Assembly: GCA_963722385.1 (NCBI GenBank)
Contig: CAVRKK010000002.1
Location: 768,001-832,000 of the forward strand
DNA from: an uncultured bacterium
GTDB lineage: Bacteria; Babelota; Babeliae; Babelales; Babelaceae
Length of the DNA: 64,000 nucleotides
Direction of reading: 5' to 3'
Below, one piece after another: positions 1,900 through 21,062 of this stretch. The translations under genes were made by a program, and so were the position numbers. Numbering within the stretch: position 1 is the first letter of the stretch; each line of letters starts with the position of its first letter. The notes under the pieces were generated by a model, which searched no databases, was not told where the DNA came from, and saw only the letters and a list, made by a program, of their open reading frames with translations.

Positions 1900-3357
1900 T
1901 TATTTGTCAATGAGCCACGCAAAGGTCTCGGGAGTGAGATCCGTCTCATTATACTTTTTTAGATGAGCGAGATGCCTGTCCGCATCCTCCACAAAAAGAT
2001 CGGCGGCAATGCCCTCAGCCAGCCTTTGAGCTCCGACGCTAATACCAGCAATATCCTCGCTAATAAGCCCATGACTTAAGGCAGCCGCGTAATTAAAACA
2101 GTGAATATTCTTAAGATACGGAGCCAGCCCCGGAACCTTCTCAAGAAACTCAAAACGCGGGCCCAAATAAGGGAACCTGCCTAATTTTTTCTCGATAGGC
2201 GTTTTTTGCAGCCCCACCACATCGTGCCATAACATAACCTTGTCAATAACACCCCGCAACTCAGGCTGCTTGCTCCCATCAACGGCAAAGCCCGTTGCTA
2301 AAATGACATAATCAGCCGTAAATATCCCCGCTTGTGTTACTACCTCTACCAGATTGCCCCGCTGGCGCAAACTATCTATGGCTATGCCGGGATAAAGCTT
2401 CACATTGTCATGCCCCTTTAATCGCATGACCGAAATAAGCGGCACGGTCGCTCCCGCAAGAAAAATATTCTTGAACATCTCCCACCGCTGCTGATCGCTC
2501 AATGAATAAAATCCCTGCTGTGCACCCTCATGGGCCAAATAACGCGTCTTGGTAACAAGCGGCGGTTGCGGCCGCCGCATAAGCAAAGAAACCGTGCGAG
2601 CACCGTGCTCTAGTGAATAGCCAGCCGCATCAAAAGCCGAAGCACCAGCTCCAATAATAACAATGTCTTTATTACGAATCGAGCCAGAATCAAGCGCCTG
2701 CGCGGTATGCGCATACCGCGAAACCGGAAGATCACCGACAAAGCTCGGCAACTCAAATCCTCCAAAACCCGGCCTCCCCGTAGCAAGAACAACCTTATGC
2801 GCTTTTATACTAAGCAGGCGACTGTTTTTCTTAAGAGTAAGTTGCAACAGCTTACCCGCCGGTGCGACCGAAACGAGCTGAACACCATTCTTAACGGGAA
2901 GGGCAAGCACTTTTTTGTACCATACCAAATAGCTACCCCATAACTCCGTCGGCACCATATCCATCTTTTGCCAGGCATCAGCTCCAAACTGCGCCGTATA
3001 CCACGCCCGAAAGGTAAGGTGCGGTATAAAAAGAGCCGGCCCTAGGTACTTCTTGTTTGATCGCAAAACATTCATACGCGCATACGTCTGCCACGGCCCC
3101 TCGCGGCCGTCTTTCTCCTGATCAATAATAAGAATATTGGTAACACCAAGCCTACGCAACGCAAAGCCAATCGCCAATCCCGACATGCCACCGCCCACAA
3201 TAACAACATCAATAGGCCCCTGCTCCTCACGCCATGACGCTGCCGGGTAGTTAATAAGCTCAAGCTCTTCGCGCAAAACAGCCTCTAATTGCTCCAGCCC
3301 AGCAAGGGTCCTTGCAGATCCGCTCAAAATGAGGAGAGAAATTAATAACCGGACCAT
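1900..3357 (-). CDS. FAD/NAD(P)-dependent oxidoreductase (flavin monooxygenase-like) with a predicted signal peptide
   Basis: Two Rossmann motifs (VGGGMSG, IGAGASA), two ATG motifs (LATGRPG, LATGF) and a hydrophobic N-terminus. Confidence 0.8.
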   Translation of the reverse strand: MVRLLISLLILSGSARTLAGLEQLEAVLREELELINYPAASWREEQGPIDVVIVGGGMSGLAIGFALRRLGVTNILIIDQEKDGREGPWQTYARMNVLRSNKKYLGPALFIPHLTFRAWYTAQFGADAWQKMDMVPTELWGSYLVWYKKVLALPVKNGVQLVSVAPAGKLLQLTLKKNSRLLSIKAHKVVLATGRPGFGGFELPSFVGDLPVSRYAHTAQALDSGSIRNKDIVIIGAGASAFDAAGYSLEHGARTVSLLMRRPQPPLVTKTRYLAHEGAQQGFYSLSDQQRWEMFKNIFLAGATVPLISVMRLKGHDNVKLYPGIAIDSLRQRGNLVEVVTQAGIFTADYVILATGFAVDGSKQPELRGVIDKVMLWHDVVGLQKTPIEKKLGRFPYLGPRFEFLEKVPGLAPYLKNIHCFNYAAALSHGLISEDIAGISVGAQRLAEGIAADLFVEDADRHLAHLKKYNETDLTPETFAWLIDK

Positions 3358-3658: not shown

Positions 3659-4708
3659 ATGGGAACATTTCGATATCTTTTTCTGATAGTGCTTGCCAGT
3701 CACTTCTCGGTGACGGGAGCACCGGCTCAATCATGGACAGGGCATTTTCAGAAAATTTTCAGGCACCCTGAGCCCACGAAGCGCTTGATTACGATATCAA
3801 GCAGCAAGGAACCATGGCACGTTCCGCATTTTCGACAACTTATCTGCTCGTGGAATGCGCACCGGCCACGACGTGGCCATTTGCGATTTTTTGCCCGCGT
3901 CCGTAATAAAGCAACGAGTCAGTGGCTGTCCTGGCACAAGATTGCCGAATGGGGTTCCCATACCCAAAAATCTTTTAGCAATGCGGCAAAAGGGTCTTCC
4001 CATCATTTTGTACGGCTTGAGCTTGATCAAGATTTGTTGGCCGACGCCTTCGAGATCAAAGTACATGCATCCCATGGTGCACACTTAAAGGACATGGCTA
4101 TGGTTTCGGTGACGGTCGCTCGGCCTGAAAGCATGGCTCCTGAGTCAGCAACGCACTTCAAAAAGCTGCCCTCGGTGCTTATTCATTGTCCCGCCATATC
4201 GCAATTTTTAGTCGACCACCCTGATGCACATCGCATCTGCTCACCCGTATCATCAACCATGCTCGTAAGCTATTTAACGGGTAAGCGGATTAACCCGATT
4301 TCATTTGCAGAAAAGTCGTATGACCATGGCTTAAAAGTCTATGGCAACTGGGCATTTAACGCAGCACATGCCTTTGAGCAGGTTCAAGGTAGCCACTACA
4401 TTGCGGTTGCACGGCTCGGGTCATGGAGCGACCTACATGCCCTCTTACAGAAAAAAATTCCCATCGTGGTCAGCATACGGGGAGAGCTCGCTGGCGCGCC
4501 TAAACCATACCCTGAGGGCCACCTTTTGCTCGTTATTGGGTATAACAACAGAACACAAGAAGTTATTTGTCATGACCCAGCACAGCCAGAGGCAGCTCTG
4601 GTAAAAACTGCTTATGCGCTTGAACCTTTCTTAAGGGCCTGGGAGAGATCCCACCGCCTTGCTTATATTGCCCGGCCAGCCAAGCGGGAGGAGCAAGCAT
4701 GCAAGTAG
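3659..4708 (+). CDS. Peptidase C39-like family protein, exported
   Basis: SQF..ICSPVS (Cys), YGNWAFN, GHLLLVIGY (His) and HDPA (Asp) motifs, plus a signal-like N-terminus. Confidence 0.75.
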   Translation: MGTFRYLFLIVLASHFSVTGAPAQSWTGHFQKIFRHPEPTKRLITISSSKEPWHVPHFRQLICSWNAHRPRRGHLRFFARVRNKATSQWLSWHKIAEWGSHTQKSFSNAAKGSSHHFVRLELDQDLLADAFEIKVHASHGAHLKDMAMVSVTVARPESMAPESATHFKKLPSVLIHCPAISQFLVDHPDAHRICSPVSSTMLVSYLTGKRINPISFAEKSYDHGLKVYGNWAFNAAHAFEQVQGSHYIAVARLGSWSDLHALLQKKIPIVVSIRGELAGAPKPYPEGHLLLVIGYNNRTQEVICHDPAQPEAALVKTAYALEPFLRAWERSHRLAYIARPAKREEQACK

Positions 4709-4817
4709 GTTATTTGCTTATTTTGTATTCGGATTGGTCCTCTATACGCGCGATGGGACACCGAAGCACTATCCTGATTTTAAAATTTTTAAGCTTTTTG
4801 GCCGATAAAGGAGCGCT

Positions 4818-6080
4818 ATGAAAATTGCACGTGTTATTGGACGAGAAGTGTACGATTCACGCGGCTGGCCCACCCTCTTGGTTGAGTTGTTGCTCAGTGA
4901 TGGTTCTCTTTTTACGGGATATACGCCATCAGACAGTGTATCAAGCCGCTACCAAGCACACGAAAAGCTTGACAATGATAAGCGATTTGGTGGCAAGGGA
5001 GTCCGTAAAGCAATTGCAACAATTGACGAAGTCGTCGCTCCCTTCTTGGTCGGCAAAGAACCGATTATCCCCGAGCTTGATTTTGCCCTTATAAGCCTTG
5101 ACGGCACAACCGACAAATCAAACCTTGGCAGCAACGTACTTATTGCCCTCAGTATGGCACTCTACCGGGCTCACGCGTTTATTGAGCGCGTTGAGCTCTA
5201 TGAATTATTAGCGTACCTTGTTGGCGCTGATTCAGTAACCTTGCCCTGCCCACAAGTGACCCTCCTAACCGGCATCAGGACCATCAATGAAAATCTCTGC
5301 ATTCAAGAATGCATGATCGCACCGATCGGCTCATCCACACTCCAAGAAGCGCTTGAAGCCAGCTTTACTCTTTACCATGAACTCAAAAATATGCTTTTTG
5401 TCCGCGGCAAGCTTGTTGGCTTTGGTGATAATGGCGGCCTTGTAGCACCTTTTCATGATGACAGGCAGGCCCTTGATATCGTACTTGAAGCGGTTGAGCA
5501 GGCAATGCATAATGGTGCTCAAGGCTTTGGTATAGCATTAAATATTGGCGCCAATCATCTTTATGATGAGTCGTTTGAGCGGTACCGCGTACATGGGCAG
5601 GCAATAACCCGCCAAGAGCTCGTCAATTTCTATAACGAACTTGTTCAGACCTACCCCATCTATTCGATTGAGGACGGCTTGAGCGAAAATGACTGGGAAG
5701 GCTGGCGCCTGCTAACCGAGACACTGGGAGATAAGGTCCAAGTTGTCGGTGGCGACGTCTTTGCAACCTCGCCCGATCGGTTAAATAAAGTGACTGATTA
5801 CAATGTCGCAACGGCAGTTCTTATAAAACCGCATCAAATCGGCACTATTACCCAAGCAGTCCAAATGATTAACCTCTGCAAAAAGTACCAGCTCAACCCT
5901 ATCGTTTCGCTGGGTGGCGGTGAAACCGAAGACTCATTTATAGCCGATTTAGCCATCGGCACCAGCGCGGGACAAATCAAAGCCGGTGGCTGCTGCCGCA
6001 GCGAACACGTGGCCAAATACAATCGCCTATTGGCTATCGAGGAATCTCTAATCTCGGGCCGCGATCGCTTCCTGCTGTAA
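4818..6080 (+). CDS. Enolase homologue, probably catalytically inactive
   Basis: Full-length enolase pattern (DSRGWPT, GKGV, SIEDG, LIKPHQIGT, GETED, GQIKAG, AKYNRL), but the SGAST, His, GDEGG, two Mg-binding Asp and SHRS positions are substituted. RBS AAGGAG. Confidence 0.85.
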   Translation: MKIARVIGREVYDSRGWPTLLVELLLSDGSLFTGYTPSDSVSSRYQAHEKLDNDKRFGGKGVRKAIATIDEVVAPFLVGKEPIIPELDFALISLDGTTDKSNLGSNVLIALSMALYRAHAFIERVELYELLAYLVGADSVTLPCPQVTLLTGIRTINENLCIQECMIAPIGSSTLQEALEASFTLYHELKNMLFVRGKLVGFGDNGGLVAPFHDDRQALDIVLEAVEQAMHNGAQGFGIALNIGANHLYDESFERYRVHGQAITRQELVNFYNELVQTYPIYSIEDGLSENDWEGWRLLTETLGDKVQVVGGDVFATSPDRLNKVTDYNVATAVLIKPHQIGTITQAVQMINLCKKYQLNPIVSLGGGETEDSFIADLAIGTSAGQIKAGGCCRSEHVAKYNRLLAIEESLISGRDRFLL

Positions 6081-9065
6081 CTCTAACATTTCCTGGGTAG
6101 AAGGTTGCGGCGAGGCTTCTTTGCCGCGCCTCAATGACGCGTCAAATGTTTCAAGCGGCACCAGCGTCTCCTCGGCACGCGATGACGGAGGTGGCGCCTT
6201 GGCAATGTCTTCCGCCGGCACAAGCCGGGTTTCACGCATATAGTCTTCGACAATATCTGATTCTGCCGAATCTAAGCCAAAAAAGAAGCGCACAATCGGG
6301 TCCTTTTTATTGCCCATGAAGCTTTCATCGACAGGGCGCAAGCCTCCTCTGATCTTACGCGTCGTGTATTCACGCATGCTTGTCCTTCGACGCGGGTCAA
6401 CAATTGTCGGCCTGATAAAAATGCCCAATTCAGTTTCAGTAACGATCTCGCGATCGCCCCGGAAAAACCAGCCTATAATCGGGATGCGGCTCAAGATCGG
6501 CGTTTCTGTTACGAGTTGGAGCTTTTGAGTTTGCGTGAGCCCACCAATAACAAGCACCTGGCCGGGCCCCCGGTGACTACCACCCTTAAGGTTGACACAT
6601 GTTTGCACCTTGCGTGTATTACGCGTGAAGCCGACGTCAGACGTAAATTGCGTGACATCAACCACAACTTCAAGATTAAGCCGATCAACAGAGCTAATGC
6701 GTGGCGTCAAGCTCAAGCTGAGCGTCGCCGGAATATCGCCAATGTTCACCTGAATAGCACCACCCGTCGAGCTCGAGCCATCAGTCTGTGTCCGCCGGAT
6801 AAGGGAGCTATATACCTGAGCATTCGTATTATTAAGAGCAATTAAATGGGGATGGGAGAGCACTTTGGCATGCCCAATGTTGTCTAAAATACTCAAAAGG
6901 CCCCAAATACCCGTGCCCGCCGGATCATTAAAGGAGACCGCAGCGGTTCCCGGCGCTGCCGGAATAATCGTGCCCGTCGTATCGGTAAAGAACCGCAAAA
7001 GGTCACCCGTAATCGTGGTGTCAGCCGGGCAAGCGGCTTGAGCAAGATTTTGCGCCGCCTTGCTAGCACCGGCCAGGCTATCTTTAAGGCTGTTGGTGGC
7101 CTGAGTTGCCTGGCTAAGCGCTTGAGCCTGTGTAGATGCTCCCGCTTTAACGGCATTACCAAGGCTTCCTGCTGCGCTGGCAAAATCATTCGCTGCTTTT
7201 TGCAAGATGTCGCCGGTCAAGAGCTGACTCGCTCCGGAGGCTGCTGCTGCCATACATTCGGCGCTCGTTAAAATGTTGCTCGTAATATGGGCTGCCTGAA
7301 AGCCAGCCCCTGGCAAGAAGTCAAATCTACTCAAATTGCGTACTTGACTGTTGAGCCGTTTATCGAGATCCCGCTCGTAATCGACGATAAGCACTTCGAG
7401 GATAACCTGCAATTGCGGTACATCAAGCTTGTCGACCAATTTTCTGAGCTGTTCCCAGTCGGAAGGCTGGGCCGCTATGAGGAGCCTATTGCCCCCCTTA
7501 TAGACTGTGCCAGCCGTTGATCCCTGGTCAAATTCCGAACCAGCGGCGGCGCCTTGCGCTGGCTGGGGCGACTCAACCGGCTGGTAGGTTTCTGCACGAA
7601 TCACCACGCCTTCAAAAAACCGGCGCGCACCCGAAATCCTCTCTCCCGCCTTTTGTTCGCCAAGGCCTGATGAGGTAACAACACTCGTAAGCACTTCAGC
7701 AAAAGACTGCGCATCAAGGTACTTTAAGTCATAGACATGGAAAATGGAAGTTCCCGAGTCAAGCGGTGCATCCATATATTCTCGCACAAAGCTTTTCAAT
7801 CGATTGACAGGCGCTTCTTTGCCCATAATGATCAGCGTGTTACGCCTGGTATCCGCTACAACGCGTATATTGGTTGAAAAATAAGAGCCAATCGTCGTCT
7901 TTGGCTCATTGCCTATTATTTTATTTCTGCCGGCAACGGCCAAAATTTGCGAATTGAGCAACTCGGCGACATAGTGCGCATTCGCATTATAAAGCTGGAG
8001 GGTAGCAAGAGCGTGCTGTGCACTTGACGAATCAAGCTCGCTGAGAATTTGCAAGGCCGCCGTAACGACACGTGCTTTGTCGGTGATAACGATAGCGTTG
8101 GATACAGGGTCAACAAAAACATTGGTCGGCGCCGATAAAATCTCCTTAAGAATTACCAACACCGGGTTGCTTGCTTGGTCGTCAACCTTGAGATTGGACA
8201 AGTAATATATTGCACGTATAAAAGCATTATTGGCCGGAAGATCTTCAGGAATAAGCTTACTTGTTGTATCAAAAACGTAGAGCGGAAGCTCATTCGTTTG
8301 CGCTTCCTTGCTCTTGATAATAACCGTAAAATCTTCGTTCGGCGATCGCGTATACCCGACATAATCCAAAAATAGATCAAGATACTTTTCTGCTTCATCA
8401 ATCGTCAAGAGCCGACCTGGCTTAAACGTAATTTTTTGCTTAAGAGCAGCGGTTTGTTGCGGTACAATAATATTGAGCTTTGTTTTACGTGCAAATCGCC
8501 TGATTACATCGGTCAAATCAGCATTATCAAACGTAAAATCAATCAAATCTTCTGGTGTTTTAACTACTTTTTGTGGCACTTGTTTGGCGGTAACCGGAAC
8601 AGCTGCTTTTGCCGCTTGTGCTTTTTTTGTCGGCCCGCGCACTTCTTTCCAGGCGCTCACCACAGGTGGCCCAGCAGCGGCTTTTTTGGCCTTTTCTGCA
8701 GCCTCTTTTTTTTGCGCTGCCGCTTCCTTTTTTGCTTTTCGAGCTGCCGCTCTCTTTTTGGTAGCAGGCTCTTTTACTTTTGCTTCTTGTTCTTTTTTGG
8801 CTTGGGCAGGCTCTACCGGCTTAGGTGCCGCAGCTGGCTGTGCTGGTTTCACTGGCACTGTCGGTGCTACCGGTGCAGGAGGCGTAACCGGCTGCGCTGG
8901 TGTCACGGGCGGTGTAACGGGTACCGCCGGCTTCGCTGGCGTTTCAGGCACCGGCTGCCATTTTACGACAGGAGGGGGCGCCCCATTTTCAGCAGCATGA
9001 ATCGCCTGGCCACATCCTAGAGCGAGTAGTATGATAATATTTTTCTTAAGTGTATTGTTTACCAT
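6048..9065 (-). CDS. gspD: Type II secretion secretin GspD-like, copy 2, with a long Pro/Ala/Lys-rich N-terminus
   Basis: Signal peptide, N0 domain (IDFTFDNADL), N-domain repeats (VADTRRNTLII) and secretin C-domain motifs (QVILEVLIVD, LVIGGL, PILSRIPIIGWFF). Confidence 0.85.
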   Translation of the reverse strand: MVNNTLKKNIIILLALGCGQAIHAAENGAPPPVVKWQPVPETPAKPAVPVTPPVTPAQPVTPPAPVAPTVPVKPAQPAAAPKPVEPAQAKKEQEAKVKEPATKKRAAARKAKKEAAAQKKEAAEKAKKAAAGPPVVSAWKEVRGPTKKAQAAKAAVPVTAKQVPQKVVKTPEDLIDFTFDNADLTDVIRRFARKTKLNIIVPQQTAALKQKITFKPGRLLTIDEAEKYLDLFLDYVGYTRSPNEDFTVIIKSKEAQTNELPLYVFDTTSKLIPEDLPANNAFIRAIYYLSNLKVDDQASNPVLVILKEILSAPTNVFVDPVSNAIVITDKARVVTAALQILSELDSSSAQHALATLQLYNANAHYVAELLNSQILAVAGRNKIIGNEPKTTIGSYFSTNIRVVADTRRNTLIIMGKEAPVNRLKSFVREYMDAPLDSGTSIFHVYDLKYLDAQSFAEVLTSVVTSSGLGEQKAGERISGARRFFEGVVIRAETYQPVESPQPAQGAAAGSEFDQGSTAGTVYKGGNRLLIAAQPSDWEQLRKLVDKLDVPQLQVILEVLIVDYERDLDKRLNSQVRNLSRFDFLPGAGFQAAHITSNILTSAECMAAAASGASQLLTGDILQKAANDFASAAGSLGNAVKAGASTQAQALSQATQATNSLKDSLAGASKAAQNLAQAACPADTTITGDLLRFFTDTTGTIIPAAPGTAAVSFNDPAGTGIWGLLSILDNIGHAKVLSHPHLIALNNTNAQVYSSLIRRTQTDGSSSTGGAIQVNIGDIPATLSLSLTPRISSVDRLNLEVVVDVTQFTSDVGFTRNTRKVQTCVNLKGGSHRGPGQVLVIGGLTQTQKLQLVTETPILSRIPIIGWFFRGDREIVTETELGIFIRPTIVDPRRRTSMREYTTRKIRGGLRPVDESFMGNKKDPIVRFFFGLDSAESDIVEDYMRETRLVPAEDIAKAPPPSSRAEETLVPLETFDASLRRGKEASPQPSTQEMLELQQEAIAARD

Positions 9066-9071
9066 TGCTTA

Positions 9072-9623
9072 TTATGATGTCAATTTAGGTTGTAAAGTAG
9101 CAATTACCAATGTCACATCGAGCAGTGATGCTTTGGGCGATTTTATCAGCACAAGCTCCTTTGGATAAACACGGTCATTTTTTTCAATCTTATAGAGAAG
9201 CTCCGCCACCTGCTTCATGTTCATCTCTTTAAAGCTACTATCAAGCTGCACTTCCTCATAGCCGTTATTCAAATCACTTTCAGCAACCGTTGGCTCTTTG
9301 CTCATATGGTTGCTCAGCCCAAGCTCTTTAACCAGCAGGTCAAAATATTGGGGAATTTTAAAATTTTTGTCTTTGGCAAGAATCTCGTCCACCGTAGCGC
9401 GCTGCTGATTAATCAAACGATACTCTTGCAAAATAGCGCGCGCTTCCTCGCGCTGCTGATTAATGCGCCTCAGTCGTTGTTCAAGTGCCCCAATACGACG
9501 CCGTTGAAAAAAAATAAGTGCTCCCAGAAGCAAGAGAAAAATACCAAGAAATATCCCTAAATATTGGTAAAATTGCTTTTTCTCAAGCTCTTGTAAAAAA
9601 TTTCTAAATCCTGCTACCGTCAT
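9072..9623 (-). CDS. gspM: T2SS GspM/PilO-like inner-membrane protein
   Basis: One N-terminal TM helix, a coiled coil and a ferredoxin-like C-terminus. Its start overlaps the gspL stop. Confidence 0.65.
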   Translation of the reverse strand: MTVAGFRNFLQELEKKQFYQYLGIFLGIFLLLLGALIFFQRRRIGALEQRLRRINQQREEARAILQEYRLINQQRATVDEILAKDKNFKIPQYFDLLVKELGLSNHMSKEPTVAESDLNNGYEEVQLDSSFKEMNMKQVAELLYKIEKNDRVYPKELVLIKSPKASLLDVTLVIATLQPKLTS

Positions 9624-11197
9624 GATGCTCCACCCAAACTTTTAGCAAGAATTAGTTTAGCTGAAAATGTAAGCTCTTGTAAGCGAGACACGCTCGTAAA
9701 GAGCTTTGATCGCCTTAGGTCTTCTTCCAGCTGCTTGAGGGCTTCATAATCCTTTACCTTACCTTCGAGATTTAGCGAGTCTTCGGTGAGCGTTAATCTC
9801 GTCAATACAAGCCCCAGCCCATCAGCATCGATACGCGTACTCAATTCTTGGAGGTACATCAAAAAAGATGCTCTGTTCTGCGTCGATAGTGCAAACCAAA
9901 TATTCTTTTCGCGCGCTACTTCGGCCCGCGATGCCTTTATGGCCATGTCAAGCGACGCGCTCTTGACACGCGGCACAATCGCTGGAAGCTCCTTCTTGAG
10001 CCGATCGACTGCCTCTTTTTCTGATTTTTGAATTTCTTGACGTAACCGCCGCGCATTAAACAGTCCATGCGCTACCAGCGAACAGATCGTGAGCACCATA
10101 AGCGCGATTGCGGTAATAAGCTGGCGGTTCAACAGTGTATCTTGGGCGACAATTTCAGGAGCTCGATAAAGGTTAAAGTCCTGGCTGGCGGGAAGGGCCA
10201 AGCTGGCGCTCGTGCTTATCACCGACTTATTAGGGATGCCGTGGTTTCCCTTAAGCTTAGCAAGATTGTGCTGCACCAAGGCTTGGCCGACGAGCGTATC
10301 GCACGGCAATCCCGTAATCTGTTCAATAAGAGCAGGCAGTCCCTTAACATCTGCTGCGGGCCCCATGAGCAGAATTTTTTGTAATTTTTCATCCTCAGGC
10401 ACGCGAACCGTAAAAGCCTCCAGTGTAAATTGTACGTCGCCTAAAAATGTCGCGGCAGATGCGCTATCATCTGGTGAAAGGGCGCTGTGCATCAGCTGCT
10501 CAAGATTGCCATTCTTAAGCCGAGCAAGCGCGGCAAGACCATGAGGCAAAAATCGAACAGCCTTCAATTGCTGCTGCACAATAACTTCTAAACGACTACT
10601 ATTCGTTCCCACGTAAAACAGAAGGATATTCCCATCCGCAATTTTGGGGTAGAGCGCTTTATAGAGAGCATATAATTCAATGGCATCGACGGTGGCCCTC
10701 GTTGGGAGTAAACCAGCGGCTTCGTAAGGAGCAAATTGCTCAGCAAGTGTTTCATGCTTAATAGCCACTGCCATCACCACCGAATGGTCCGCTTGCATGC
10801 TCGTAGTTATACAGTCTACCGTCGCCTCGCTTAAAGCAAAGGGCAGCAAGGGCTCAATTTCGAATGGTAACACGAGCTTGATTTTTTCAGGACTGGTAAA
10901 CGGCAAGCGTAACTCCTTAAAAATCACCGTGTTGGCCGGCATAACGATCGAAAGCTGACTGTAGCGACCAACTGATGAGAAAGCTTGGGTCAACGCGCTT
11001 GCAGCCCGCTCAGCGTAAGACTTTGTTGCATCATCTTCAAGAGGCACCTCAATAATCTGCTCAATGGTTCTCACCCTGCCCGCTATCTTCGTCGCGGTGA
11101 GCCGGACATGATTCTTCGTGAGCTGGCAAGCAACCAATCGCTGTGCAAAAACGTAATAGTCACCAATCTGGTCAGGTAAAAAAAGGGAGCGGATCAT
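9620..11197 (-). CDS. gspL: T2SS GspL (PilM-like cytoplasmic domain, TM helix, PilN-like domain)
   Basis: LRLPF..KIKLVLPFEIEPLLPF motif, a single TM helix and a periplasmic LNLEG domain, located between secretin genes. Confidence 0.75.
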   Translation of the reverse strand: MIRSLFLPDQIGDYYVFAQRLVACQLTKNHVRLTATKIAGRVRTIEQIIEVPLEDDATKSYAERAASALTQAFSSVGRYSQLSIVMPANTVIFKELRLPFTSPEKIKLVLPFEIEPLLPFALSEATVDCITTSMQADHSVVMAVAIKHETLAEQFAPYEAAGLLPTRATVDAIELYALYKALYPKIADGNILLFYVGTNSSRLEVIVQQQLKAVRFLPHGLAALARLKNGNLEQLMHSALSPDDSASAATFLGDVQFTLEAFTVRVPEDEKLQKILLMGPAADVKGLPALIEQITGLPCDTLVGQALVQHNLAKLKGNHGIPNKSVISTSASLALPASQDFNLYRAPEIVAQDTLLNRQLITAIALMVLTICSLVAHGLFNARRLRQEIQKSEKEAVDRLKKELPAIVPRVKSASLDMAIKASRAEVAREKNIWFALSTQNRASFLMYLQELSTRIDADGLGLVLTRLTLTEDSLNLEGKVKDYEALKQLEEDLRRSKLFTSVSRLQELTFSAKLILAKSLGGAS

Positions 11198-14169
11198 GGG
11201 CAGACCTCAGGTGTACGTTTTTGGACAAAGTCATACAATTTTTTTGTCCTTATGGCACCAGGTGGCTTGAGGCTTTGGCTACCCTTGATCGGCGATGGCG
11301 GGGGCGGTTGAGCGGGCAAGGCGCACGGGCGATTAATTAAGAAATTTTCGATCGGGTCACGCAATGGCTGCTCAAAAGACTCAGGGGGTGAGCCTATAGC
11401 CATTTCTGGTGGCATCGTCGGCGGCTGGCCTTTCCTACGCCCTCGCAGACGCGGTGGTGGCGGACCCATTGGTCCTGGTGGTAGTTCCGCCATCGGCGGC
11501 ATTCCCTCGCCTTCTGGGGCACGCGCCATTCTGCCGCGCATACGGACTGCAGTCTTTCGCCTTTTCTTGCGCTCTTTTTGATCAGCAGTTGGGTTTGAGT
11601 TAAAGTTTCTCATCAGAGCGCCTATTTGATCAATATCGTCCTCAAAGAACCATCGATGAATAGGGTCCTGCAATTGCTCATCACACATCATGGAATCAAG
11701 CAAGTTTTGGGCACTTGTCATTTGTGAATTGGTAAAGGCTTCTATTCTATTAGAGGCATGAGGGTTAATCACTTCTGCCGAAATCAGAATAAGCAAGCTT
11801 GCTTTTTGGACGGATTTTCGCCTGCTTTTGAAGAACCAGCCAAGGACCGGAATATCGCCAAATATCGGCACCTTAAACTCGCTCTCTGATATAACGTCCT
11901 GCGTCAATCCGCCGAGAGCAAGCACCTGATTGTCTTCTACAATCACCGACGTGGTAATACGCTTATCGTCTCTATTGCCCTGTGATGGGTTATCAGACGG
12001 TACGGCGGTATTGCTGGCGGCAAGAGTGAACGTACTGCTATCAACCGTCACCGTAAGCGTTATCAGGCCATCAGGGCTTATCTGCGGCATGATATCAAGT
12101 GTCAAGCCAGCCTCTAAGTCGCCAAAAGTTGGCACACTCGTATTCGAGCCACCAACGATCGTCGATGTTATAACGTGGCGAACCTCGGTGATCTGTATCT
12201 GAGCATTATACTTATGCGTCGTGACGATGAATGGTTTTGCAACGATCGAAGTATTCAAATAGCTTTGCAGAACTTTAAAGAGGCCCCAAACGCCAAAAGC
12301 ATCGGTGCCCAAGGTCACGAGCGTCGACCCAACGACGTTTGAGCTTGCAAGGTCTACCAGGTTACCCAATAATCGGACAGCGCCGCCCATACCCGGTGGC
12401 TTGGTCGAATCGTTGACCACAATTGACGAATTGGCACCATTGAGTGGCAAGCCAGATGTTTGAAAGTTAACATCCGGGCTGAGCGAGCCATCAAGCGTTG
12501 GTTTGCGGTTACGAAGCTGCATGCCAAACTGCCGACTATTGGTCGCATTAACATTAAGAACGAGCACGCGTATAGCAACCTGCGGCTGCTCCGTATCAAC
12601 TTTTTGAAGCAACTCGTAAATTTGCAGGTAATCATCATAGTCAGCATTGATAATTAAGCTATTAGTCGACTTTTCAGCCGTTACCGTTACCGTTGGCTTG
12701 AGGAACTTAGTGCCACCAATAACACCTCCAAATTGGGTTACGCCCGCGGCGCTCTCGGGACTAAAGCCCTTAAGCTCATTAACAATCTGAGCCATTGCCT
12801 CGGCATCGATATATTTAAGCGGGTAGACATGCAATGGGGAGTAGGGCAAATCAATTTCTTTATCAATCTCTTTACGCACAAAGAGCTCTATTTTTTCAAC
12901 ATTACTTCGCGGCCCGAGAAGTATCAGCGAATTAGTACGTGCATCGGCAATAACACGCACGTTTTCGGTAAAGTAAGCAACCGTCGATTGCTTTCTGCCC
13001 CCCGGGCTTAAACGTGCCAGGAGCGACGTTTCCTCTTTTACGAGCGCATCATAGAGCGCTTTTACCTTAGTTGCATCGGCATTTTCCAATTTGATGATAA
13101 CGAGCGTCTCGGGCAACGTTGGCTTGTCGAGCTCCTTAAGAATAGCCAGGATTGACCGGATATTGCTCGAGCGGTCAGCCAAAATAAGCGCATTGAGATC
13201 TTCGATAAGAATTGGCTGCCCCGCGATGGCACTCTTTAAATTGTCAGCAACATTTTTAATAACAGCAGGCGTCGTATTTTGAATAAAGTACACATAACGA
13301 ATTTTAACATCATTTGTTGGCAAGAGATTATAATCGATGCCGATAAACGTAGGCACCGGGTCCTTGCTCGTACTGAATGTTGAAGCGCGTGCGTTATTGG
13401 TGATAAGATATGCCCGCTCTTCAGGCCCTGGAATAATCATCAAGCCCGCGAGATCAAGAAACTTAACAAAGAAGTTCCATGCTTGTTTCTTATTAAGCGC
13501 AGCCTCAGTCCTAAAAGAAAATTTAACTCCGGTAACCAAGCGCGCACCGGGTTCAGGTGGCTTAATAATATCATCGAGTATAAACGTAAGCTCGTACTGC
13601 TTTTCAAAATAACGAATGAGGTTGATCAGCTCGGCATTTTCAAAATTTATATCAATCTTTTTTTCACCCTTGACATACTCCCATGGGTTAAGAAACTGGC
13701 CCAGGTACGCGTAATTGGCAAGCGGTGTTTCAGCTCGTTCTTCTTCTTGTTCTTCGATTTCCGTTTCAGCTTCTTCGTTGATTTTTTCTTCGAGATCACG
13801 CATCACTTTTTCAGCTTCCTCAATTCCCGTCATCGGTTCGCTCAATATGACCGGCGCGTGCTTTTCTTCCTCCTTAAAGTCAAAGGTAACTGATAAAGCA
13901 GGCAGTGGGGGCACGATGGTATTCAGTCTTTCATGAAGCTGTTGCAATAATCCCTCTTTGCTGGCAATCTCTTCTTTCAGCTTTTCAAGAAATGCCATAT
14001 TTTTGCTTTTAACCCAGCTTCTTACTTCAGGGGCGGTTGCGGCCCTAAAGATCTCGTGATCAACGCCTTCCTGAATTTCCAATGCACGGGTATCGGCAAA
14101 GCCGATCACACTGATGACCATCAATAAAAGGTACCAATTTTTACCTAAGCTATTCATTGCAATTCGCAT
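11194..14169 (-). CDS. gspD: Type II secretion secretin GspD-like, copy 1, with an N-terminal coiled coil and a Pro/Met-rich C-tail (alternative start 14157)
   Basis: IDINFENAEL N0 domain, IADARTNSLIL repeats, QVAIRVLV, LALGGL and KVPIFGDIPVLGWFF secretin motifs. Confidence 0.85.
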   Translation of the reverse strand: MRIAMNSLGKNWYLLLMVISVIGFADTRALEIQEGVDHEIFRAATAPEVRSWVKSKNMAFLEKLKEEIASKEGLLQQLHERLNTIVPPLPALSVTFDFKEEEKHAPVILSEPMTGIEEAEKVMRDLEEKINEEAETEIEEQEEERAETPLANYAYLGQFLNPWEYVKGEKKIDINFENAELINLIRYFEKQYELTFILDDIIKPPEPGARLVTGVKFSFRTEAALNKKQAWNFFVKFLDLAGLMIIPGPEERAYLITNNARASTFSTSKDPVPTFIGIDYNLLPTNDVKIRYVYFIQNTTPAVIKNVADNLKSAIAGQPILIEDLNALILADRSSNIRSILAILKELDKPTLPETLVIIKLENADATKVKALYDALVKEETSLLARLSPGGRKQSTVAYFTENVRVIADARTNSLILLGPRSNVEKIELFVRKEIDKEIDLPYSPLHVYPLKYIDAEAMAQIVNELKGFSPESAAGVTQFGGVIGGTKFLKPTVTVTAEKSTNSLIINADYDDYLQIYELLQKVDTEQPQVAIRVLVLNVNATNSRQFGMQLRNRKPTLDGSLSPDVNFQTSGLPLNGANSSIVVNDSTKPPGMGGAVRLLGNLVDLASSNVVGSTLVTLGTDAFGVWGLFKVLQSYLNTSIVAKPFIVTTHKYNAQIQITEVRHVITSTIVGGSNTSVPTFGDLEAGLTLDIMPQISPDGLITLTVTVDSSTFTLAASNTAVPSDNPSQGNRDDKRITTSVIVEDNQVLALGGLTQDVISESEFKVPIFGDIPVLGWFFKSRRKSVQKASLLILISAEVINPHASNRIEAFTNSQMTSAQNLLDSMMCDEQLQDPIHRWFFEDDIDQIGALMRNFNSNPTADQKERKKRRKTAVRMRGRMARAPEGEGMPPMAELPPGPMGPPPPRLRGRRKGQPPTMPPEMAIGSPPESFEQPLRDPIENFLINRPCALPAQPPPPSPIKGSQSLKPPGAIRTKKLYDFVQKRTPEVCP

Positions 14170-15251
14170 TACTTCTGGGGTATTCGCTGTAGTAGTGCCT
14201 CATGGCTTCCAAATTTTCTCATAGCTGCTTGATCTCTTTTTTGTATTTCATATGCTGCTGGTGGTAGATGGGCAAGCGAGCTTGCTTCCATCGCTCTGGG
14301 TAGCTCGCTTTGCAAGCTGAGTGGTTTTGCTGAACTTATGTGCTGCAGTATCACCACGAGCTCATGTACTTTTTCTTGCCGCAGCAGCCGTACTCGTATT
14401 GTTTGGCCCAAGGTAGCATTCTTCAATGACTGGTAAGCGGTTACGCGCTCCTGGGTTGTCGCAAGCGGCATGTTATTAACGTGAGTTACTATATCGCCGG
14501 TCTGCAAGCCGAGTGCGTAGCCCAGTGATTGGTCAGGCATTCGACCAATATGGCAGCCAATGCTTACATCGCGCTCAAATGCTGTCGTCATATCAAGCAT
14601 ATCGACAAATTGCGCTACGCTGGTTATTTTGCTTTTCAGTATATCTGGATCAATGGCATACGACCAGTCGGTAATTTTTTGCACGGTTTTCTCCCATGAC
14701 GTATCATGCGCAAAAACTGGGTCTTCTGATGCGTCCTGCGCCGTCAAGAAGAGCGTTTCTTGCTGGCCATTAGAGCGTATAAAGATGACTTTATCGCGCT
14801 CAATTCTAATAATTTCGGCGTCTTCTAGTATACCACCAACTGCATAAATCTCTTCTTTTTTAGTTTTTTCATCGGCAATAATTGCTCTATTGTCTTGCTC
14901 ATCACTGCTCGTGATTATACCTTTCAAGCTTATTTTGAGCGGCTCGAGAAATTCTATGCGCGGCTGGGGCAGCGGCATCGGCATCAGCGGGATAGGCGGA
15001 GGCGGCGGCACGACGTTCACTTTTTCTGGTTCGATTGGTTTAAGTGGCGGCTTATAGGTATTAAAGAGGTCATTATTGTAGATACGGCTTAAGTCGATGG
15101 GGAAAAAGGGTTTTTTGGCAGGCGCAACAGCGGCGCTCGGTGTAAGCGATTTACGAGCTGGAGGCGCTTTTCTGGTAAAAAAAATAACACATAAAACGAG
15201 GAGCCAAAGGAGCGCTAGGCTCGAAGTGAGCACCCAGAGTGGATTTCTCAT
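14169..15251 (-). CDS. gspC: T2SS GspC (TM helix, HR domain, PDZ domain)
   Basis: TM helix, poly-Pro linker, LKGII..RAIIAD..EEIYAVG HR domain and GLQTGDIVTHVN PDZ motif. ATG at 15251 follows AAGGAG. Confidence 0.85.
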   Translation of the reverse strand: MRNPLWVLTSSLALLWLLVLCVIFFTRKAPPARKSLTPSAAVAPAKKPFFPIDLSRIYNNDLFNTYKPPLKPIEPEKVNVVPPPPPIPLMPMPLPQPRIEFLEPLKISLKGIITSSDEQDNRAIIADEKTKKEEIYAVGGILEDAEIIRIERDKVIFIRSNGQQETLFLTAQDASEDPVFAHDTSWEKTVQKITDWSYAIDPDILKSKITSVAQFVDMLDMTTAFERDVSIGCHIGRMPDQSLGYALGLQTGDIVTHVNNMPLATTQERVTAYQSLKNATLGQTIRVRLLRQEKVHELVVILQHISSAKPLSLQSELPRAMEASSLAHLPPAAYEIQKRDQAAMRKFGSHEALLQRIPQK

Positions 15252-15424
15252 ACTCTCCTTTGTTTGAGCTCTGCATACCAATGCAACAAGACAATACTCT
15301 CGTTGAATAACAAATTTGTCAAGATACATCTCCACTTTCTAAAGCTATCACAGTATAGCCGAGCAACGCCTTCTTTAAAAGAGGCAATTTTTGAGGGGGA
15401 GGCCTCCGCGGTTTCGCCAAGACT

Positions 15425-17818: not shown

Positions 17819-18838
17819 ATGAAAAAAAATGATCTTTTTGCGGGCATTCCTGAGGCAATCCTCGAAAAGCGCAAGCATATTGCGCAGCCCTCTTTTATTG
17901 AGCCGATGCTGGCGACCTTAACAAAAGACTATTTTTCAAGCAAAGACTGGATCTATGAGCATAAGTTCGATGGCGAGCGCTGCCAAGCCATTAAAAAAAA
18001 TGGCAAAGTCATGCTTATGTCGCGCACGCAAAAGAGCATAAATCTCGAATATCCCGAATTGGTCACGGCGCTTGAGCAACAAAAAGCTGACGATTTTATT
18101 ATCGACGGTGAAATTATCGCGCTTAAGGGTGGCCTCTCAAGCTTTGAACTGCTTCAATCGCGTATAAACTTGCAAGACATCGCTGCTATTGCAAGACGAG
18201 AAAAGCGTATCCCAATAGGCTATGCTATTTTTGATATCATGTACGTCGGTGGTTACGATGTGCGCGATCTCCCTTTATTAGCAAGAAAACAGTTGTTACA
18301 CAAATTGCTCGATTATAACCAAATCTTGATCTATACCCAGCACCGCTCACCTGACGGCGTAAAATATTTTCAGCAGGCATGTAAATTGCATTGGGAGGGA
18401 CTTATCGCAAAGCGCTCAGGAAGCACCTACGTGAGCATACGCTCACGCGACTGGCTTAAGTTTAAGTGCATCATGAAACAAGAGTTTGTCGTTGCAGGGT
18501 ATACCGATCCAAAGGGATCACGCACTGATTTTGGCGCTCTCCTCGTCGGCTACTATGAAGGAAAAAAGCTGCTTTATGCCGGCAAAGTGGGGACTGGATT
18601 TGATCATATAGCTTTAGAGCTTTTAGGGAAAAAGTTACGCGCATTACAAACCAAGATTTGCCCATTTGATAACTATACACTTTCAACCGCCGGTGTTCAT
18701 TGGGTTAAACCCCAGCTTGTAATCGAAGTACAGTTTGCTCAGTGGACCAACGCGAGCAGGCTACGCGTTCCCCGTTACAAAGGCTTACGCGACGATAAAG
18801 CCGCTCGCGATGTGGTGAAAGAAGTGCCAACTGGTTAA
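17819..18838 (+). CDS. ligD: ATP-dependent DNA ligase (LigD ligase domain only)
   Basis: PMLA, EHKFDGER (KxDG), IDGEI, EGLIAK, WLKFK and YAGKVGTGF motifs, plus an OB domain. Confidence 0.9.
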   Translation: MKKNDLFAGIPEAILEKRKHIAQPSFIEPMLATLTKDYFSSKDWIYEHKFDGERCQAIKKNGKVMLMSRTQKSINLEYPELVTALEQQKADDFIIDGEIIALKGGLSSFELLQSRINLQDIAAIARREKRIPIGYAIFDIMYVGGYDVRDLPLLARKQLLHKLLDYNQILIYTQHRSPDGVKYFQQACKLHWEGLIAKRSGSTYVSIRSRDWLKFKCIMKQEFVVAGYTDPKGSRTDFGALLVGYYEGKKLLYAGKVGTGFDHIALELLGKKLRALQTKICPFDNYTLSTAGVHWVKPQLVIEVQFAQWTNASRLRVPRYKGLRDDKAARDVVKEVPTG

Positions 18839-20381: not shown

Positions 20382-21062
20382 ATGTCAGCGTCATCAACAG
20401 CGTTGCGCGTAAAAGAGCTTTTGCGCGAAAAGGGATGGACGACTAAGATCTTGGCTGAAAAAACCGGCATGTCTGAAAGTTATCTGACGCACATTAAGAA
20501 TGGCACGCGTCGTTGGAATGAGGATTCCTTGCGCAAGCTGGCAAGTGCATTTGAAATAGGGCCTATTGAGCTTTTTGCGCAGCACCGGCAAAGAACCGAC
20601 CAAGTTACCAGCAATGTTAAGATGCCTGAAAAATCTGATGTTCAGGTTCAAGTACAGATCGTGCCCGTGCTTGGCGATATCCCATCACACCCATCGCCTT
20701 ACAATAACCAGCTGATGCAAGTTACCACTGGCTGCAAAGATATGTTTGTCCCGATGATAAACCGGACAGACCCGGGTATGTTCGGACTTATACTGAACAA
20801 TAACCTGCTAGCGCCTACTTTCGAAAAAGGCGATCTGCTCATTGTCTCGCCTGAGGTTTGGACACGCTCAGGAGATATAGCTGCTGTTGAGTACGGCAAT
20901 GATACGCCGATGAAGGGCATCATGAAAGTTACATTTACCGATGATTTTATTGTGCTTGAATCGGTCAACTATAAGCAATCCCCTATTGCACTCGTGCGCG
21001 CCAAAGACCATTTCAGAATCATTGGCCGCGTCATTGAACGGCACCAAGGATTTGTTGAGTAA
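20382..21062 (+). CDS. XRE-family HTH with an S24 (LexA/cI-like) domain, probably non-cleavable
   Basis: HTH (LAEKTGMSESYLTHIKNG), VPVLG, GDLLIVSP, LESVN..Y and IIGRV. The Ala-Gly site and the GDSM Ser are absent. Confidence 0.85.
   Translation: MSASSTALRVKELLREKGWTTKILAEKTGMSESYLTHIKNGTRRWNEDSLRKLASAFEIGPIELFAQHRQRTDQVTSNVKMPEKSDVQVQVQIVPVLGDIPSHPSPYNNQLMQVTTGCKDMFVPMINRTDPGMFGLILNNNLLAPTFEKGDLLIVSPEVWTRSGDIAAVEYGNDTPMKGIMKVTFTDDFIVLESVNYKQSPIALVRAKDHFRIIGRVIERHQGFVE

Follow-up and report, generated by a model that had tools for sequence, protein, structure and literature searches.

Analysis of a 64,000-nucleotide stretch of Babelota DNA (hereafter the window) revealed an uninterrupted open reading frame of 420 amino acids at positions 4818-6080 of the forward strand (protein P0001). 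The frame matches the enolase family model TIGR01060 and represents the eno orthologue; judged by its residues, the product appears to be a catalytically dead enolase. A Shine-Dalgarno-like AAGGAG is present at 4808-4813 (+), 4 nt upstream of the ATG, which agrees with the intact enolase frame and strong ribosome-binding site of the preliminary description of this DNA. A scan for promoters and terminators found nothing above shuffled sequences. Upstream of eno, on the same strand and after a gap of 109 nt, lies a gene for a C39-family peptidase (3659-4708, +), and intact enolases in this family likewise have such a gene ahead of them. On the other side, the second secretin gene, gspD (6048-9065, -), is convergent to eno and shares with it the 33 nt from 6048 to 6080. 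The overlap noted earlier is thus real, but the two genes are placed tail to tail on opposite strands, on which the preliminary description was silent; gspD is an ancestral neighbour outside the function of eno. The rest of the T2SS-like operon (9072-15335, -) was identified by family scans as GspM-like, GspL/PilM-like, first GspD and GspC genes, the GspM-like name being given by position as a family match is absent. This two-secretin operon agrees with the TM6 operon described in PMC4776705. The second secretin carries a Pro/Ala/Lys-rich N-terminal extension of about 170 residues ahead of its GspD domains. Elsewhere in the window, a flavin-dependent oxidoreductase is encoded at 1900-3357 (-), and by eye the frames at 17819-18838 (+) and 20382-21062 (+) resemble an ATP-dependent DNA ligase and an XRE-type regulator, respectively.

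The best named relatives of the window enolase are Dependentiae/Babelota proteins. Members of this phylum are described as living intracellularly in protists (PMC12172432), and the source bacterium is a protist parasite. The window gene is the sole enolase homologue of its genome (G000; 93% complete, two contigs), so the second canonical eno that the preliminary description proposed to look for is not found there. It is the ordinary, vertically inherited eno of Babelota at the ancestral eno locus.

The window protein contains the enolase N-terminal domain and barrel at full length and scores 397 bits against TIGR01060, where the cut-off is 300. Its AlphaFold2 model (pLDDT 90.1) superimposes on solved enolases with TM values of 0.90-0.93 and an rmsd of about 2 Å, the value for 3tqp being TM 0.90. 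Comparison with bacterial enolase (EC 4.2.1.11; TIGR01060, PF03952 and PF00113; structures 4a3r from B. subtilis, 3tqp and 1e9i) thus revealed the same two-domain fold, about 40% identity and an orthologous position in the gene tree. The window protein differs from these enzymes in its catalytic, metal and phosphate residues and in that the pathway around it is gone.

Alignment to canonical enolases, with active-site residues in yeast numbering, revealed the replacement of eight of the 15 scored active-site residues. Loop 1 (4926-4946, +) reads PSDSVSS instead of PSGASTG, with S39 replaced by V41 (codon 4938-4940), and loop 2 (5268-5282, +) reads TGIRT instead of NGGxH, with H159 replaced by T155. 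E211, the general acid, is N205 (5430-5432, +), and the base K345 is kept without it. Among the three Mg ligands, E295 is kept (as E285) and the other two are replaced, D246 by N242 (5541-5543, +) and D320 by G312 (5751-5753, +). H373, R374 and S375, which serve substrate and phosphate binding, are replaced by L365, G366 and G367 (5910-5918, +); all five residues of the phosphate and second-metal site (S39, H159, H373, R374 and S375) are therefore replaced. The remaining residues kept are Q167, E168, D296, D321 and K396. The alignment confirms each of the losses listed in the preliminary description, as well as the retention of E168, E295, K345 and K396. Roles of the active-site serine, histidine, arginine and lysine residues of enolase, including K345 as general base, are given in PMC6863902, and the Mg ligands are named for the S. 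aureus enzyme in PMC4667285. Two other features were observed in Babelota enolases: the asparagine of the canonical G-N-P-T motif (region 4818-4890, +) is changed to a bulky W, F, Y or L, and position 22 is a lineage-specific cysteine in most of them and valine in the window protein.

The window enolase keeps seven of the 15 catalytic sites, compared with 56 of 68 other conserved columns (Fisher p = 0.007), the latter being non-catalytic columns whose conservation among intact Babelota enolases is 90% or more. The lesions therefore exceed general divergence, and the earlier view of a preserved scaffold with loss focused on the active site is upheld. In a comparison set of 80 enolases (79 from other bacteria and one from a Dependentiae MAG), 79 were intact and one was cut by a contig end. 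All eight lesion codons read identically in contig pieces from four public runs of three studies, where one of the four runs is possibly the source sample and the E211 and D246 codons are covered by one run only. As none of these contig pieces shows a differing letter at the codons, an assembly error is unlikely. Among the public runs listed, no RNA run carried the sequence. The window protein is almost certainly dead for the dehydration of 2-phosphoglycerate, and on the residues it carries it would count as an orthologue within the enolase family that falls short of what EC 4.2.1.11 requires for catalysis. The TIGR01060 cut-off is also passed by 11 of the 14 other damaged relatives tested. 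Annotation pipelines still label the window protein as enolase; it and those 11 relatives would be annotated as phosphopyruvate hydratase, and metabolic reconstructions need correcting.

Family searches of the 93% complete genome G000 did not find pyruvate kinase, iPGM, PGK or GAPDH. For the congener G009, too, iPGM, PGK and GAPDH were not found; the same searches did match control genomes. By local search, TPI and KdsA were not found in G000 and matches to dPGM reached 23-26% only. Local search did identify the MurA motif, and the genome contains a PEP synthase frame of 805 codons with the His and Cys motifs present (G000:C2:122210-124624). Across the 261 Babelota genomes, pyruvate kinase was found in one, compared with 217 for a PEP synthase/dikinase domain; any PEP-pyruvate step therefore runs through PEP synthase. 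From this we infer that the enolase of G000 is without substrate supply and that PEP derives from pyruvate. TM6 is pictured in PMC4776705 as converting glucose to pyruvate, a picture that fails for the dead-enolase lineages. The preliminary description missed both this cause, the loss of lower glycolysis, and its recurrence across the phylum. PEP synthase N-domain scores are weak in the eno-less genomes G016 and G017 (about 1e-62 compared with about 1e-110), where the gene is possibly degenerating. Many genomes of family f1 whose enolase is intact (e.g. G001-G006, G014 and G035-G040) give PGK matches split into two or three weaker pieces, and PGK there may be divergent or degenerate.

An enolase match was found in 228 of the 261 phylum genomes; the remaining 33, of which 18 are high quality, gave none even by the Pfam model. 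Of the 228 enolases, 196 were fetched, three were dropped as short or split, and 193 full-length proteins were scored. Analysis of these revealed 162 intact enolases, seven with one to three sites changed, none with four and 24 with five to 13. Enolases with at least five sites lost were counted as dead, a cut set after the gap at four had been seen. In trees built after removal of active-site columns, dead enolases nest among intact ones within their own families. The number of changes between the intact and dead states was 10 on the 193-row tree and 12 on a 78-row subset; these counts give no direction, and the outgroups are intact. The window protein belongs to a well-supported clade of seven full-length proteins, the sister of which is an intact enolase. 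None of the seven retains H159, and the other lesions differ between members. Among 119 database homologues, 110 were intact and nine had lesions. P0015, P0067 and P0090 are further damaged enolases outside the clade of the window protein; P0015 groups with the intact enolase of G010, which suggests another independent origin.

Comparison of the state of enolase with the neighbouring steps of glycolysis revealed PGK in two of 24 dead-eno genomes, 152 of 162 genomes with intact enolase and eight of the 33 eno-less genomes. iPGM, tested in 78 genomes chosen to include sister lineages, is present in two of 24 dead-eno genomes compared with 47 of 51 intact ones. Either PGK or iPGM is missing in all 24 dead-eno genomes, compared with seven of 51 with intact enolase, and four tested genomes with intact enolase are also without iPGM. 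Among independent pairs, the iPGM comparison stood at 6:0 (median p 0.03). For PGK it was 5:0 (p 0.06), which is not significant on its own. PEP synthase was considered as an obligate partner of dead enolase and ruled out, being found in nine of the 24 dead-eno genomes and absent from 15.

Each of the 24 dead-eno genomes gave a single enolase match, with no second enolase found. This bears on the proposal of the preliminary description that the protein is a regulatory subunit pairing with an active enolase. Enolases do form heterodimers, and such a role has been proposed for vertebrate ENO4 (PMC7132099), which likewise carries critical catalytic substitutions and has a proposed non-catalytic role. 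ENO4 is the nearest published analogue found. It differs from the Babelota case in being a paralogue beside active ENO1-3, whereas in Babelota the sole copy is dead, with many origins by pathway loss. An enolase of the host is formally possible as partner. With the window copy as the only homologue in G000, at the ancestral eno locus, the heterodimer proposal is to be abandoned as extremely improbable.

The residues that persist could instead belong to a pocket remodelled for a new ligand or chemistry, as in a sensor or a different enzyme. K345, K396, E168 and E295 remain in the window protein, and in dead pairs the omega of active-site strands and loops is still 0.02-0.11, a low value that includes structural barrel strands. 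Particular replacements have also become fixed within clades: all five members of family f4 (L169 and L171-L174) carry E211Y and R374D, and all five of genus g24 (L161 and L164-L167) carry D296N and K396Q. These clade-fixed pocket residues are proposed to reflect either structural compensation or a new ligand. The chemistry of the enolase superfamily requires metal, and two of the three Mg ligands are gone in the window protein. Furthermore, the replacements do not converge between lineages and form a mosaic inside the clade of the window protein. A new pocket is therefore considered very unlikely.

The preliminary description also named a surface factor as one possible role and noted the overlap with the secretin gene, calling a functional link unproven. 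By a further reading, the protein would be a surface or secreted factor that interacts with the host and is linked to the adjacent T2SS. In several bacteria, enolase is reported to moonlight at the surface (PMC8152036), and the intracellular life of the phylum in protists (PMC12172432) would suit such a role. A convergent gspD occurs within 3 kb of 21 of the 24 dead enolases. The same arrangement is ancestral, however, and common to 106 of 160 intact enolases, a lower bound owing to short loci; gspD overlaps eno in 55 intact and 12 dead cases. Of 22 eno-less genomes, 21 still have secretins. At 20 secretin-adjacent loci in 19 eno-less genomes no eno remnant was found (best E 0.66). In some cases the locus examined lay at the other secretin or ran into a contig end; the empty site is clear in about 10, where the usual flanking genes adjoin gspD directly. 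The secretin overlap is an ancestral tail-to-tail gene order. Substrates of the T2SS require Sec or Tat export, and the window protein begins with the usual first beta-strand, where inspection revealed nothing resembling a signal peptide. With the gene on the opposite strand and secretins kept where eno is gone, the protein was rejected as a T2SS component or substrate, and a secreted host-interaction factor is, by a small step, even less probable than a remodelled pocket.

Selection on the dead copies was estimated from scaffold columns with the pairwise GY94 codon model. Omega was 0.045-0.074 in five unsaturated dead pairs compared with 0.012-0.100 in nine unsaturated intact pairs; three dead pairs, including G000/G009, for which omega is not estimable, and one intact pair were saturated. 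Omega = 1 was rejected in all eight dead pairs. The comparison of phylogeny and dN/dS suggested in the preliminary description thus yields genes that are nested among intact orthologues and not neutral. In simulations of neutral evolution to 0.4-1.0 changes per site, 0-1 of 1000 copies kept an open frame. Because the frames are open and the scaffold omega of dead copies is like that of active ones, these proteins are taken as selected pseudoenzymes and not as pseudogenes, with omega drawn from the five sister dead pairs as G000/G009 is saturated. Searches of contigs from genomes and metagenomes yielded canonical enolases almost exclusively and did not turn up a close relative with DNA.

Retention of conserved columns across 11 dead lineages was 0.54 in active-site strands and loops compared with 0.84 elsewhere. 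For the dimer-interface elements (named for enolase in PMC4667285) it was 0.87 compared with 0.84 in the remaining scaffold, an excess that is not significant (p = 0.25). Column retention in these 11 lineages thus identified no special binding surface at the dimer interface. By simple counting, dN/dS was 0.07-0.50 in 10 dead pairs and 0.03-0.20 in 29 intact pairs. Dead enolases also diverge faster than intact ones relative to RNase Y: between G000 and G009, eno is 54% identical where rny is 83%, and intact pairs reach an eno identity of 50-55% only at rny values of 66-72%. Some relaxation in dead enolases is therefore real.

The main rival to a retained function is slow erosion, in which the gene is still expressed, selection acts only against misfolding or disturbed operon ends, and the copy is heading to deletion. 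It holds this place because of genus g32, in which six of 10 genomes have deleted eno and the other four carry dead copies. Several observations fit erosion: sister lineages show clean deletions at this locus, divergence is faster and counting dN/dS higher, no specially conserved surface was found, and the enolase of G195 is very eroded (12 sites lost, on the longest branch). On the other hand, no trace of pgk, gpmI or gap could be detected in the genomes where eno is whole. Loss of the start or ribosome-binding site would be a cheap way of silencing, yet a Shine-Dalgarno-like motif is kept ahead of 17 of 24 dead genes, compared with 83 of 169 others. Clades of five, five and seven divergent members all have full-length frames, scaffold omega matches that of active enzymes, and eno is kept both with and without the gspD overlap. 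Slow erosion is therefore unlikely, though less so than any of the rivals above.

Our preferred reading is that the eno of this lineage died after the loss of glycolysis and was kept for a second job, to which as a whole we give a probability of about 0.7; retention of the window enolase for a non-catalytic job is likewise probable. As a first step, the lineage lost iPGM, PGK and GAPDH, as shown by their absence from the 93% complete genome, and the intact PEP synthase would make PEP from pyruvate for MurA. Enolase catalysis would then be useless because the enzymes making and using 2-phosphoglycerate had been lost and PEP was available through PEP synthase. Metal, phosphate and acid residues then decayed, H159 clade-wide and the others differently in each tip. 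Purifying selection on the remaining protein is of roughly the strength seen for active enolases; this last step is drawn from five sister dead lineages and, for the lineage of the window protein, only from open frames over saturated synonymous divergence. What is selected would be a prior second job of a folded, probably dimeric, acidic cytoplasmic binding protein. Such a job would be useful and not essential, because several lineages have deleted eno.

The most likely partner would be RNase Y, as in the RNA-decay network of Bacillus, Streptococcus and Staphylococcus. B. subtilis enolase is reported to bind and support RNase Y (PMC8152036, PMC9775385), with a Kd of 100 nM, and deletion of eno to make the rpsO half-life 2.5-fold longer (PMC8152036). 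Genes for RNase Y (HD motif included), PNPase and DEAD-box helicases are all present in G000, as in the networks described for B. subtilis, S. pyogenes and S. aureus (PMC8152036, PMC4667285), and a fold-dependent, non-catalytic role would fit. The differences are that enolase in those networks is also an active enzyme, that RNase Y persists in Babelota genomes without eno, and that binding of enolase to RNase Y in Babelota is a prediction. RNase Y is present in 22 of the 24 dead-eno genomes, not being found in G065 (93% complete) and G088 (53%), and is otherwise near-universal in Babelota. In family f14 (G112-G117), eno is present in none of six genomes and RNase Y in neither of the two tested (97-98% complete). 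The RNase Y profile barely discriminates, because 18 of 20 eno-less genomes keep the gene. RNase E/G was found in 74 of 78 genomes, PNPase over cut-off in 45 of 48 and RNase Y over cut-off in 54 of 59; the presence of none of the three tracks eno. A predicted complex between the enolase dimer (residues 1-413) and residues 26-198 of RNase Y scored 0.00 with a mark of 0.32 and weighs neither way.

The preliminary description had suggested an RNA-degradosome scaffold, of which the RNase Y type stands as a possibility and the E. coli type does not. In E. coli, a microdomain of RNase E is described as binding in the dimer groove of enolase with the active site unperturbed (2fym, 3h8a; PMC2935283), and a binding role of that kind is the likeness to the present case. 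The frame of the RNase E/G homologue in Babelota, about 500-550 codons long, ends after the catalytic domain and is without the scaffold that carries the microdomain, so the E. coli-type route is closed. A text search of PMC5758883 found no mention of interface residues. RibD is another reported partner of bacterial enolase (PMC11908141), and some partner other than RNase Y is quite possible. Judged from gene content, it is rather doubtful that the retained job lies in RNase Y and RNA decay. The wider proposal, that Babelota enolase has a conserved non-catalytic function, probably as RNase Y cofactor, which preserved the protein about 10 times after loss of glycolysis, is advanced tentatively and at somewhat less than even odds.

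A literature search in main texts, with most subscription journals outside its scope, found no published account of dead enolases in Babelota. The word enolase is absent from the main text of PMC4776705, PMC6561590 and PMC12172432; eno orthologues may appear in Table S5 of PMC4776705. What is new in this study is a sole-copy orthologue that died about 10 times in step with pathway loss and is still under selection. Enolase is a textbook moonlighting protein whose additional roles are not easily disentangled from glycolysis. Evolution in Babelota separated the two about 10 times, with the pathway gone, the active site gone and the protein kept, and this recurrent retention suggests that enolase has a further job that is not enzymatic. 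These natural, catalytically dead variants are available to test the RNA-decay role by itself. If the reading is true, the moonlighting of bacterial enolase is independently selected, and the variants would map the surface that carries it.
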